Virus record (IMG/VR): IMGVR_UViG_3300032236_001081
Coordinates: 1-64,000 of that record
Reading direction: 5' to 3' (one strand)
Origin: a virus
DNA: 64,000 nucleotides
The position numbers were made by a program, and so were the translations under genes. How positions within the stretch are numbered: position 1 is the first letter of the stretch; each line of letters begins with the position of its first letter. Positions 6,129 through 9,283 of the stretch are shown piece by piece. The notes beneath the pieces were generated by a model, which searched no databases, was not told the origin of the DNA, and worked only from the letters and a program-made list of their open reading frames with translations.

Positions 6129-6344
6129 ATGAGCTTTGATTATGATAGGTTTTTACATGATGCAAATGCAAGTTTTATTACTCATGTAGGTGATTTAAGG
6201 TATGGTCAGTATTTGATGAATGAGCTTAATCAACAGTATCCAGAGGTGAGTATTCCAGAGGAGTATGATTGCTTCTATGATAATGATAAAGTTCCTGATT
6301 TCTTGAGGTATATTTCTCAGTATCAATCTATGGGACACATTTGA
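6129..6344 (+). CDS. Hypothetical protein
   Basis: ATG at 6129; LRYGQxxxNxL...DxFYD pattern seen in phage small proteins. Confidence 0.7.
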   Translation: MSFDYDRFLHDANASFITHVGDLRYGQYLMNELNQQYPEVSIPEEYDCFYDNDKVPDFLRYISQYQSMGHI

Positions 6345-6534
6345 ATGAATGTAGTGTAGAATACATTATTTGATGGTTCAAATATGCTATTTGAAACTAT
6401 CATAAATAGACTCTTTTTATGTTGGTATCGTAATAATAATATACAATAAAAAGGTTTAAATAAATATAGTCCTTTGTTCTATTGTTATTACTATTGCTTA
6501 TCTAAAAAGAGGTATTGTTCAGTATGTCTTAAGT

Positions 6535-6592
6535 CTTATTAGCTACTCATTTCTTATGTTCTTATCCCTTATTAGCTACTCATTGCTTATGT
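6535..6592 (+). repeat. 25-bp direct repeat, 2 copies, period 33
   Basis: CTTATTAGCTACTCATT(T/G)CTTATGT at 6535-6559 and 6568-6592. Confidence 0.85.
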
Positions 6593-6641
6593 GTTGATAT
6601 CTCATTTAATGCTCTTATTTCTAGCCGTCTAGGCCCGCATA

Positions 6642-6670
6642 AGTATACCACACCTCTCAAAATTTGTCAA
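6642..6670 (-). promoter_or_regulatory. Minus-strand sigma70-type promoter firing into non-coding DNA
   Basis: Reverse complement reads TTGACA-17 bp-TATACT with TG extension. Confidence 0.75.
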
Positions 6671-6739
6671 CCCCCGAAATCCGAGTTATCAGGATTACTT
6701 ATGAGAGACCCACCAATCTTCAGTAAGACTTATAGCTCA

Positions 6740-6797
6740 TGTGCCACTTGTAGAGCTGGCACAGTAAACGGGCACAGCGCCTAAAATGTGGTATTCT
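6740..6797 (+). promoter_or_regulatory. Palindrome promoter cassette, copy 5
   Basis: TGTGCCACTTGTAGAGCTGGCACA at 6740-6763, then GTAAACGGGCACAG, then TGgTATTCT. Confidence 0.8.
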
Positions 6798-6851
6798 TAA
6801 GGAGTGGGAGGAGCAAGTCCCACATTAGTCTCAATCTTTATTCTTTTCATC

Positions 6852-7115
6852 ATGAACGACGACTACAAATTCAACTCTAACAACAGCAACAAACTTCCTT
6901 CTGAGATTGATACTTTAGATGATGCGATTGCTTATCTACAAGTGGCACGAGAGACTATGGGTGGAAATGCTAAGTTTCGTATGGTAGCTGATGGTGAAGA
7001 GACTGATACTGATTGCTATTACCGAGTTAACGATGTAGTGCTCACTGGCAATAAGTCTCTGATGGCAAAGTCTCGTTTTAATGATAACAGAGATTATGTT
7101 CTGTTTCTTTACTGA
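6852..7115 (+). CDS. Hypothetical protein
   Basis: ATG at 6852 (MNDDYKF); single-gene module between cassettes 5 and 6. Confidence 0.7.
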   Translation: MNDDYKFNSNNSNKLPSEIDTLDDAIAYLQVARETMGGNAKFRMVADGEETDTDCYYRVNDVVLTGNKSLMAKSRFNDNRDYVLFLY

Positions 7116-7139
7116 ATCTCACAGTAAGTCTCAGACACT

Positions 7140-7197
7140 TGTGCCACTTGTAGAACTGGCACAGTAAACGGGCACAGACGCCAAATTGTGCTATTCT
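7140..7197 (+). promoter_or_regulatory. Palindrome promoter cassette, copy 6
   Basis: TGTGCCACTTGTAGAACTGGCACAGTAAACGGGCACAG, 400 bp after copy 5; TGcTATTCT. Confidence 0.8.
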
Positions 7198-7251
7198 AAG
7201 GGGGTGGAGGGACGCCCCCAACACATTCAATACACCAAATTAACCAACACA

Positions 7252-7404
7252 ATGACTAACGAATTCAACCGCGACCTGATGATTTCTATGCTCCGTAAGG
7301 GTCAAAATGGCAATCAAATCCTTGACATTCTAAATGCAATTACTCCTGATAACGATGTGCAGGCAGATGTGACTGTGGAGGATGCTGAACTGATTGAAGC
7401 CTGA
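7252..7404 (+). CDS. Hypothetical 50 aa protein
   Basis: ATG at 7252 after an A/C-rich leader (MTNEFNRDLMISMLRKGQNGNQ). Confidence 0.7.
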   Translation: MTNEFNRDLMISMLRKGQNGNQILDILNAITPDNDVQADVTVEDAELIEA

Positions 7405-7975
7405 TTTCGTGAATAAGTATTCACTGCTACTTCGTGTAGAGTGAATACTTTGATACGGGGGGAGGGTTCGTTATTCTGTGCAAACAGTGGTGTTTACTTC
7501 GTGGTAATTAGCACTGTTTGCATACTTATCCTCCCTACTTCGTCCTGTTGAGCTACATAAACCACAGTCTACTTCGTCGCAGTTCTTTATATCCAATTTT
7601 GGATACGGGGGGAGGGTTAGCTATTATGTGCAAACAGTGCTACTTAGTTCGTTATATGCACCCCTAAATGTAAACAATTCGGCGCAATCACTTCGTGATT
7701 AGAATAGCTGAGAAGTTGACATTACTTCGTGATACTGATAGAATGTGAATTGCGATTGATAGTTACTTCGTGTTACTTTCAGTTGCAATTCTTCGTTTAT
7801 TTGATACGGGGGGAGGGTAGTGTATTTTAATCAAACAGTGTTACTTAATTCGTTATTTTGGCACTTCGTGTATTAGAATAAACAATTAATCGCAGTTCTT
7901 CGTGTATTAGAATTACAGTGTATTATGATTGTTGGGTATTATTAACCCTTACCGATGCCCCCCCCTTATATAATT
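7405..7975 (+). repeat. Non-coding repeat and hairpin tract (candidate replication origin or structured RNA)
   Basis: GATACGGGGGGAGGGT-N13-CAAACAGTG at 7452, 7602 and 7803; 14 TTCGT motifs; long inverted repeats; no ORF. Confidence 0.85.
7716..7744 (+). promoter_or_regulatory. sigma70-type promoter inside the repeat tract
   Basis: TTGACA (7716-7721), 17 bp, TAGAAT (7739-7744), with TG extension. Confidence 0.75.
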
Positions 7976-8135
7976 TCAATGTACTACCCTAAGCTATAAA
8001 CTACCAAATTCGCTAATATATTACATGTCTTCAAAAAAAATTCCCCAGGAAAAAAATATTGATAAAAGTGTTTTTTGTGAGAACTTTGAAATCATATATA
8101 ATTTTTAAACGCCCCCATTGAGAATAGGTAAAACA

Positions 8136-8285
8136 ATGAAAATAGATTTTGATGAATATGAGAAAGATATTCTCTTAGAGACACTTCAATATAGAATTGA
8201 GAATGACGAGAGATTAATACTTAGCGAAGGTATTAAAGATGATATTCAAGAACTTTTAAGAAAAGTAGAAGATGAATACTTATAA
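8136..8285 (+). CDS. Hypothetical 49 aa protein; not in ORF track
   Basis: MKIDFDEYEKDILLETLQYRIE...; AGGT upstream; overlaps the next start. Confidence 0.6.
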   Translation: MKIDFDEYEKDILLETLQYRIENDERLILSEGIKDDIQELLRKVEDEYL

Positions 8286-8436
8286 TATTTCGGTGGAAGG
8301 AAAAGTAGTATTAACTCAAATACCCACTGAAAATATTGAAGAAAACTTAAAGATTATCCGAGGGTTAGTTTGGACACACGGAGGGTCAGATAAGGATATT
8401 ATGGTTTCTATAAATACCAACGAATTGCACTCATAA
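8272..8436 (+). CDS. Hypothetical 54 aa protein; not in ORF track
   Basis: MNTYNISVEGKVVLTQIP...; TAA at 8434-8436. Confidence 0.6.
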   Translation: MNTYNISVEGKVVLTQIPTENIEENLKIIRGLVWTHGGSDKDIMVSINTNELHS

Positions 8437-8458
8437 AATTGACTAGGAGTGCTATAAT
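8409..8458 (+). promoter_or_regulatory. T4-type late promoter plus extended -10 upstream of the GT-like gene
   Basis: TATAAATA at 8409-8416; TGcTATAAT at 8450-8458. Confidence 0.55.
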
Positions 8459-8484
8459 AATCACGTTACATACTTGAAAACAAT

Positions 8485-9243
8485 ATGGCAAAAGGATTTA
8501 CAGTAAAGGCAAAGCCACCTGAGGCAAAGCCCCTTGAGGATGAATTTGATTTACAGGCAGCAAAGGAATTAATTAAAGGAAAGACAATTGTATTTTGTCT
8601 ACCTGGAAGAGGAGTTTCATATGTTTATCTGAAGAACTTTGTTCAACTATGTTTTGACTTAGTTCAAGCAGGAGCTGCCATTCAGATTTCACAGGACTAT
8701 AGTTCAATGGTAAACTTTGCACGTTGTAAGTGCTTAGGAGCCAATGTTCTGAGAGGACCAGACCAAATTCCTTGGGATGGAAAACTTCCTTATGACTACC
8801 AGCTATGGATTGACTCTGACATTGTGTTTAATACCGAGTCTTTCTACCGTCTAGTTGCAATGGATAAAGATATTGCAGCTGGTTGGTATTGCACGGAAGA
8901 TGGACACACTTCCTCAGTAGCTCACTGGTTGGATGAAGATGATTTCCGAGGCAATGGTGGTGTGATGAATCACGAAACCTTGGAAACTATGAGTAAGCGT
9001 CGGAAGCCTTTCACAGTAGATTACACTGGATTTGGTTGGACTTTGATTAAGCATGGAGTATTTGAACATCCTGGGCTAAAATATCCATGGTTTGCTCCAA
9101 AAATGCAAGTTTTTGAGTCTGGAGATGTTCAAGATATGTGTGGAGAAGATGTAAGTTTCTGTTTAGATGCAATTGCAGCAGGTTTTGAAATTTGGTGCGA
9201 TCCTAAAATCCGTGTCGGACATGAAAAAACTCGGGTAATCTGA
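8485..9243 (+). CDS. Conserved cyanophage protein with GT-A (GT2-like) glycosyltransferase motifs
   Basis: WIDSD (DxD), TGFGWTLI, GEDVSFC, C-terminal GHEK; MAKGFTVK start typical of cyanomyovirus core genes. Confidence 0.75.
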   Translation: MAKGFTVKAKPPEAKPLEDEFDLQAAKELIKGKTIVFCLPGRGVSYVYLKNFVQLCFDLVQAGAAIQISQDYSSMVNFARCKCLGANVLRGPDQIPWDGKLPYDYQLWIDSDIVFNTESFYRLVAMDKDIAAGWYCTEDGHTSSVAHWLDEDDFRGNGGVMNHETLETMSKRRKPFTVDYTGFGWTLIKHGVFEHPGLKYPWFAPKMQVFESGDVQDMCGEDVSFCLDAIAAGFEIWCDPKIRVGHEKTRVI

Positions 9244-9254
9244 GAAAATCGTCT

Positions 9255-9283
9255 TTGACAAGCCTATAAGGCTATGATAGAAT
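9255..9283 (+). promoter_or_regulatory. sigma70-type promoter
   Basis: TTGACA-17 bp-TAGAAT with TG extension. Confidence 0.75.

Follow-up and report, generated by a model that had tools for sequence, protein, structure and literature searches.

The subject of this analysis is a gene-free stretch of about 730 bases in the partial genome of an uncultured T4-like cyanomyovirus. It lies in a window of 64 kb, i.e. the whole stretch of DNA that was analyzed, taken from a contig of 75.7 kb; all coordinates are window positions. The dominant feature of the gene-free stretch is a field of 14 TTCGT boxes on the + strand (7406..7903), which is unique on the contig and absent from the original prediction, an earlier annotation that had delimited the region at 7405-8110 and presented it as a candidate transcription-primed origin. 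The stretch is a real conserved control region and plausibly a replication or control site. More specifically, we read it as a single-copy docking and control cassette arranged around a conserved early promoter, which would most likely act in the manner of oriE, as an origin-type site or in the control of initiation; this is the likeliest of the readings considered here, and we hold it with somewhat less than even confidence. In phage T4, direct repeats and an early-mode promoter occur together at oriE (Kreuzer and Brister 2010, PMC3016281). Among the contigs compared, the cassette belongs to a small clade of uncultured T4-like cyanophages.

Seven relatives of the same lineage, all of them metagenomic or IMG/VR contigs (L001, L098, L123, L101, L100, L109, L085), were found by pattern scans and a protein-anchored scan and were then aligned. 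They keep the region at a nucleotide identity of 73-86%, and the conservation that the original prediction had proposed to look for in related phages is thus present. Only frames of 30-49 amino acids (aa) are open in the stretch, the frame extents differ among the relatives, and the indels between these are almost all of 1 nucleotide (nt). Because frame extents are not conserved and the indels have this size, we regard the stretch as non-coding, in agreement with the earlier statement that 7405-8110 holds no open reading frame (ORF); tiny ORFs running across the modules described below are ruled out by the same 1-nt indels. According to the protein of the downstream phrog_1574 gene (83-85% identity), the nearest cultured relatives are the Synechococcus phages S-T4, Sf-CH5 and ACG-2014f, none of which has similar DNA or a TTCGT field. 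A blastn search with the region and with its counterpart from a sister lineage against 50,697 phage records gave no match, a search of the window for tRNA and tmRNA was negative, and no description of the element was found in the searchable literature. The public sequencing runs listed as containing the stretch are DNA metagenomes, with no RNA run among them.

The first seven boxes of the field start at 7406, 7431, 7467, 7498, 7539, 7573 and 7648, the last seven at 7692, 7726, 7767, 7792, 7849, 7865 and 7899, and all lie on the + strand. They follow the pattern (A)(C)TTCGT(G/T)(A)(T). Six boxes correspond to the exact 8-mer ACTTCGTG, and all six copies of this 8-mer in the window are located inside the field (expected number: 0.62). 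On the + strand, TTCGT occurs 10 times in the bin 7501-8000, as compared with a contig mean of 0.38 per 500 nt. Most boxes form invariant alignment columns across the seven relatives, and the number of boxes per relative stays at 13-16 in spite of local gain and loss. Some familiar identities were tried for the box and rejected. By eye, there is no -10 hexamer at the proper distance for a -35 element, and no convincing match to the tRNA T-loop or to the RpaB HLR1, NtcA or IHF motifs; a UUCG tetraloop is discarded since the base after the G is always T, which leaves no C-G closing pair.

Interspersed with the boxes are three modules. The sequence GATACGGGGGGAGGGT is present in the window in three exact copies (7452, 7602 and 7803, all on the + strand); tolerating up to 3 mismatches adds no further copy, and shuffled sequences contain 0.07 copies on average, with 0 out of 100 shuffles reaching three. 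Behind each copy, at a distance of exactly 13 nt, stands CAAACAGTG (7481, 7631 and 7832). Both the copies and the spacing had been reported in the original prediction and are confirmed. Module 1 (7449..7489), module 2 (7599..7639) and module 3 (7800..7840), all on the + strand, share the composite motif TTTGATAC-GGGGGGAGGG-T-N4-TATT-N5-CAAACAGTG; they are unevenly spaced, at 150 and 201 nt. Throughout the lineage, the composite module of about 40 nt reads (TTTC)ATACG-[G/T]GG[G/A]G-AGGGT-N4-TATT-N5-CAAACAGTG. Its blocks and their spacing are invariant in the roughly 20 copies printed from the relatives, while the N positions vary freely. Conserved blocks at fixed spacing, separated by freely varying sequence, are typical of recognition sites. 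Of the G6AG3-N13-CAAACAGTG arrangement whose conservation the original prediction had proposed to test, the fixed blocks, the spacing and CAAACAGTG are conserved, but not the G6 run, which differs among the relatives (GGGGGG, GTGGGG, GGGGAG).

The third constituent of the cassette is a sigma-70-type promoter on the + strand, TTGACA-17-TAGAAT (7716-7744), with 11 out of 12 consensus matches and a TTCGT box within its spacer. It had been recognized in the original prediction, and the alignment corroborates it: the TTGACA hexamer, the 17-nt spacing and the spacer box are invariant in 7/7 aligned relatives, and the -10 hexamer drifts solely within TAnnnT (TAGAAT, TAGGAT, TAAGAT, TATGAT, TATTGT, TATATT, TATGTT). 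Hence, it looks like a genuine early promoter of the sigma-70 type. Module 3 alone lies downstream of it. One relative, L109 (L109:650-1235; alignment A2, columns 366-429), carries an insertion of 64 nt, composed of two tandem units of 32 nt, directly after the promoter spacer, and keeps TTGACA-17-TATGTT in spite of it. A second TTGACA-17-TAGAAT, with a TG extension, is found in the window at 9255-9283 upstream of the S-adenosylmethionine (SAM) decarboxylase gene; its spacer lacks a TTCGT box.

Further evidence comes from a sister lineage of more than 20 contigs (L012, L051, L070, L128-L148), in which a field of 12-14 same-strand TTCGT boxes occupies the same place upstream of the phrog_1574 gene. 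This lineage, too, possesses three modules, each with a G:C run and then CA(A/C)ACAGT 14-21 nt further on. On the + strand, several members have ACCCACCCCCC(A/G)TAT, i.e. our window's ATACGGGGGGAGGGT in reverse complement; other members read CTCCCAGGGGGG, and L130 has no run at all. The strand flip and the absence of the run reveal that the G-tract is not kept on the non-template strand. According to these comparisons, it is a duplex G:C tract that is conserved, and not a G-run in the transcript. Moreover, no conserved structure was detected with alifold in 16 sister sequences (mean identity 73%): the values are -2.4 kcal/mol for the + strand and -4.5 kcal/mol for the - strand, and the boxes are not situated at hairpin tips. 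The missing RNA structure, together with the G:C element on the opposite strand, favours recognition at the level of sequence or duplex.

The sister lineage also provides the setting in which an origin-type role is considered. Directly upstream of the field, more than 20 contigs contain 6-8 perfect TTTTCCACA sites in both orientations and in a fixed arrangement (e.g. L070:2800-3022), and these sites interleave with the first TTCGT boxes (TGTGGAAAAC-TA-TTCGTTAT). TTTTCCACA is the cyanobacterial DnaA box (PMC4674748). In our window, the place of the DnaA array is occupied by a gene of 50 aa at 7252-7404. An origin-like context of the locus is supported by the sister DnaA boxes that adjoin the same field.

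To the right, the stretch is flanked by a conserved group consisting of two tiny genes, the phrog_1574 gene, the SAM decarboxylase gene and the gene of the baseplate protein gp25. The two tiny genes overlap, and both are on the + strand. Gene A (8136..8285) encodes an acidic protein of 49 aa, which is predicted to be helical (predicted local distance difference test score, pLDDT, of the model: 80); gene B (8272..8436) encodes a protein of 54 aa with a predicted beta-beta-alpha-beta fold (pLDDT 91) and an invariant RG(L/I)VWT.GG motif. We surveyed their linkage to the field in 49 loci, collected via the phrog_1574 gene and each with at least 1.3 kb of upstream flank. The field, defined as at least 11 boxes per 600 nt, is present in 5 out of 49 loci, and the remaining 44 have at most 6 boxes. 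Protein A and/or protein B is encoded in all 5 field-bearing loci, as opposed to none of the 44 field-less ones; the field and genes A and B therefore form one cassette. Neither Pfam nor PHROG gave a match for proteins A and B, and the fold searches for protein B remained at an E-value of 0.8 (best Foldseek match) and a Z-score of 5.2 (best VIA match; root-mean-square deviation 2.1, 48 residues aligned), which is within noise. The two proteins are candidates for a box-binding factor. To the left, tiny genes and repeated promoter cassettes make up the adjoining zone. Two cassette copies of about 100 nt, at 6720-6830 and 7120-7230, each head a tiny gene; both contain the palindrome TGTGCCA-N10-TGGCACA, then TATTCT, and then a G-rich hairpin (GGGGGTGGAGGGACGCCCCC).

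In the docking cassette that we propose, boxes and modules would serve as multi-site docking points for a sequence-specific factor, encoded either by the phage or by the host, and the G:C tract would act as a duplex element independent of the strand. Rightward transcription, starting at the 7716 promoter and supplemented by read-through from the upstream cassette, would cross the field and yield a hairpin-rich transcript. The likeliest job of such an arrangement would be the control of initiation at a site of the oriE kind, and/or the control of early promoters that feed the downstream operon. The model would not require a G-quadruplex.

The hairpins themselves deserve a closer description, because they bear on the choice between this model and its main rival. 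All of them are read on the + strand. Hairpin 1 (7415..7450) has the arms AAGTATTCACT and AGTGAATACTT and an inner stem CTAC/GTAG capped by TTCGT; it is seen in 4 out of 7 relatives, and the arms compensate in L001 (GGTATTCTCG and CGAGAATACC). In hairpin 2 (7479..7522), the CAAACAGTG of module 1 pairs with CACTGTTTG, and a ACTTCGTG box forms the tip. A mini-hairpin ATCAC-TTC-GTGAT (7687..7699), followed by TAGAAT, also carries its box at the tip. Hairpin 5 (7747..7791), directly after the promoter, has arms of about 12 bp and a ACTTCGTG tip. Hairpins 2 and 5 contain the best-supported helices: helices 1-3 of hairpin 2 are paired to 93-97%, with 3 pairs changed on both sides, and 6 out of 12 pairs are changed on both sides in helix 7 of hairpin 5.

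Single-sequence folds of the two strands yield z = -6.5 and -6.1 against shuffles. Strong folding of both strands is expected, because the region is rich in inverted repeats. The consensus local folding, however, differs between the strands, with -34.3 kcal/mol for the + strand versus -14.0 kcal/mol for the - strand. Within ten local helices, 93.8% of the cells pair (33-48% for slid partners), and 10 pairs are changed on both sides, compared with 5.3 ± 1.3 in shuffles, of which 1 out of 500 reaches 10; it has to be kept in mind that these helices came from the same alignment that was used to test them. The non-Watson-Crick cells of the helices comprise 60 G·T and 1 A·C. Since G·T is tolerated and A·C almost never, selection acts on the + strand, be it as RNA or as single-stranded DNA. 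Boxes are unpaired more often than the background (0.58 vs 0.37, p ~0.002). The covariation that the original prediction had suggested to look for is thus found in the local hairpins, while the global covariation term is weak (-1.55). The idea that the G-rich elements pair over a long range with the C8 run and ACCCT was rejected, as all columns concerned are invariant and offer no covariation support.

Several of these and other observations weigh against the docking cassette. The G·T and A·C pattern of the hairpins is unexplained by binding to double-stranded DNA alone, and the covarying + strand hairpins point to a role of RNA or single-stranded DNA. The box spacing is irregular (16-75 nt) and, by eye, without helical phasing, and the box core of merely 5-8 nt is below the classical iteron length. 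DnaA boxes are represented in the window by background matches with one mismatch only, none of which falls in 6300-8200. Neither gene A nor gene B is recognizable as encoding a DNA- or RNA-binding protein, given that no family match and no nucleic-acid-binding fold was found, and the co-occurrence of both genes with the field may be plain linkage. Finally, no function of the oriE repeats has been shown in T4 (PMC3016281).

What competes most seriously with the docking cassette is an element at the RNA level, i.e. a hairpin-rich early leader or non-coding RNA that would present UUCGU on hairpin tips or in open AU-rich sequence, as a platform or sponge of the CsrB/RsmZ kind for an RNA-binding protein. 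We consider it rather unlikely, and nevertheless it accounts better for the strand-specific folding: it agrees with the difference between the strands in consensus folding and the single-sequence z-score, with the pairing, the two-sided changes and the excess of G·T over A·C in the helices, with the enrichment of boxes in unpaired positions, and with the presence of a conserved promoter inside the region and of all boxes on the transcribed strand. Yet the sister lineage possesses the same field without a conserved structure and with boxes off the hairpin tips. No terminator was found for the transcript of the region, and a search of 6500-9000 against Rfam (cmscan, E up to 10) returned chance matches of the snoRNA type only, far below the gathering scores. 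In addition, the weak global covariation term and the derivation of the tested structure from the same alignment reduce the weight of the folding evidence, and an RNA element leaves both the strand flip of the G:C tract and the interleaved DnaA boxes unexplained.

A more specific proposal is that a phage factor, perhaps the 49-aa or the 54-aa protein, binds the boxes, and that the field with its three modules is the platform for replication initiation in a clade of uncultured T4-like cyanophages. Early transcription would open the region, and the + strand hairpins would arise either on the RNA or on the strand that is displaced. Host DnaA would be an interchangeable accessory, the sister phages having a DnaA-box array at the place of a small gene in this phage. 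We think that the proposal in this detailed form is unlikely.

Alternatively, the region could be promoter and cassette debris of a hyperplastic region with no collective function. In that case, the modules would be weak sigma-70-like promoters and the hairpins would be PeSL-like remnants minus their small genes; PeSL are units of about 70 bp in T4-type phages, made up of a stem with G-run, loop and C-run and then a promoter, each unit heading a small gene (PMC2839356, PMC4122927). The module can indeed be read as TTGATA-16-TATTCT, from which transcripts would begin at the A's of CAAACAG, with 9 out of 12 matches and a proper geometry in all three copies. The sister modules have good -10 hexamers (TACAAT, TAGAAT, TATAAT), including one full TTGACC-18-TAGAAT around the G6 run. 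Furthermore, the region adjoins the tiny-gene zone with its repeated promoter cassettes, and its distribution among the relatives is patchy, as the survey of the 49 loci demonstrates. Against this stand about one third of the printed module copies, which have a C at the last -10 position (TATTTC), and a -35 TTG that is not conserved, whereas the G-rich spacer and CAAACAGTG are conserved far beyond the needs of a promoter. None of the modules shows the stem-loop form of PeSL (G-run, loop and C-run, then TTGACA-N17-TATAAT), and the box number is maintained in two lineages, which suggests selection rather than decay. We give this explanation little credence.

The C8 run (7958-7965) and the A/T-run tract (8033-8106), toward which, according to the original prediction, the 7716 promoter fires, exist as described, but they belong to a different element. 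On the + strand, 7940..8001 is an older conserved block, AACCCTTACCGATG-C8-TTATATAAT and then ACTACCCTAAGCTATAAAC (7983-8001), which is kept in all lineages; the A/T-run tract (A8TT...A7; 8033..8106, + strand) includes an A7-8/T block that is broadly conserved. Taken together, AACC.TTACCGATG-C8-TATATAAT ... ACTACCCTAAGCTATAAAC ... A8TT..A7 (7940-8061) is conserved in all lineages examined. The block is shared with the cultured phage S-T4 (L081:3585-3780; alignment A3); because this phage has no field, the block is not specific to the module array. The A/T tract ends in a promoter-like TTGTGA-16-TATAAT (8075-8102) for the small genes. The C8 run and the A/T tract are an older separate element, which probably serves the downstream genes as promoter and leader or else is a conserved non-coding element of its own. 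Where the conserved C-run block would be expected, the sister contig L131 contains five tandem GGTATAAA units after a C9 run, about 310-350 nt past the anchor 20-mer TGTGGAAAACTATTCGTTAT.

As to duplex stability, the A/T tract begins about 290 nt past the -10 hexamer of the 7716 promoter and ranks merely among the top 2-8% of meltable windows. Outside the stretch, the block 6388-6500 is among the top 0.1-0.5% for low duplex stability. A minus-strand consensus promoter, TTGACA-17-TATACT (6670-6642), fires into the ORF-free AT-rich block that holds 6388-6500, and L001 (2578-2550) and L070 (2543-2515) have this promoter as well. The pair of promoter and candidate unwinding element in 6345-6670 is superior to that of the stretch itself. 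The cumulative GC skew, another suggestion of the original prediction, is monotone on the partial contig and informs neither way.

These results also bear on the mechanism that the original prediction had put forward, according to which the 7716 transcript forms a persistent R-loop with a hybrid G-quadruplex at G6AG3 and primes the leading strand near the C8 run and the A/T tract. The promoter is conserved, and selection for folding acts on the + strand, i.e. the one that an R-loop would displace. Every module copy of the lineage retains a pair of G tracts, each of 3 or more (G4-6 plus G3), on the + strand, and the G6 A G3 of module 3 (7808-7817, + strand) lies downstream of the promoter. In mitochondria, CSB II, a conserved sequence block, reads G5-6 A G7-8 and keeps to a single strand; for a hybrid quadruplex of this type, two G tracts of 3 or more on the non-template strand are the least that is required (PMC3488243, PMC4176368). 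The T4 origins oriF and oriG, moreover, act via a promoter and an unwinding element (PMC3016281). Nonetheless, the hybrid quadruplex fails the comparative test: the G run varies, and members of the sister lineage have the element on the opposite strand or lack it. Of the three modules, a single one lies downstream of the promoter, and a canonical four-tract G-quadruplex (3 or more G per tract, loops no longer than 12 nt) is found on neither strand of the 75.7-kb contig. Adding the distance and modest meltability of the A/T tract, the occurrence of the C8 run and the A/T tract in phages without modules, and a GC skew that does not help, we regard this mechanism as very unlikely. In summary, a non-coding and conserved region with a promoter, an origin-like context and + strand folding is what remains of the original prediction, but not its G-quadruplex and R-loop specifics. 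A transcript-dependent origin in general, for which T4 oriE, oriF and oriG are precedents, may nevertheless apply.

T4-like cyanophages are major killers of aquatic cyanobacteria, and their replication origins and early regulatory circuits are unmapped. In the locus described here, sites that can be tested lie close together, conserved and in single copy, i.e. the boxes, the modules, the promoter and the two linked tiny genes. As host DnaA boxes accompany the field in the sister phages, the question of the start and timing of replication becomes directly testable. At the same time, the analysis corrects an attractive yet unsupported G-quadruplex reading.

The cassette can be compared with several known systems. 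The sponge RNAs CsrB and RsmZ contain many copies of a short GGA motif. The field resembles them in that a short motif is repeated 15-75 nt apart, about half of the copies being on hairpin tips, within a transcript that would measure about 500 nt; it differs by its UUCGU motif, by the lack of a detected terminator and of a known partner protein, and by a structure that is not kept in the sister lineage. Classical origins with an initiator and DnaA, such as P1 oriR, RK2 oriV, pSC101 and R6K gamma, have iterons of 17-22 bp. Their combination of DnaA boxes, an adjoining array of direct repeats and small genes recurs in the sister lineage; the window, in contrast, has no DnaA boxes, far shorter repeats and no recognizable Rep-like initiator. 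With PeSL, the stretch shares a location in hyperplastic regions of T4-type phages and repeated regulatory cassettes in which stem-loops go with sigma-70-like promoters, but no genes lie between the units here, and conservation concerns the boxes and the module with its G:C tract. The likeness to CSB II consists in two G-runs separated by an A, which lie downstream of a promoter and on the non-template strand; here, however, the second tract is G3, the first run is variable, and the strand flips between lineages.

Like oriF and oriG of T4, the stretch has a promoter firing toward an A+T-rich tract, and a transcript-primed mechanism is conceivable for both; a promoter whose transcript would enter the origin is present here, as judged on sequence only. 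However, the promoters of oriF and oriG are MotA-dependent middle promoters, and their unwinding element follows immediately downstream (PMC3016281), whereas the promoter here is of the early type and no unwinding element adjoins it immediately. The repeats of oriE are 12 nt long and evenly spaced, in contrast to the irregular 5-8-nt cores and the additional 40-nt modules described here; there is no sequence similarity between the two loci. Their likeness is one of organization: in both cases, non-coding direct repeats in the same orientation are combined with an early-mode promoter of the host sigma-70 type, at a single locus near baseplate genes in a T4-type genome.

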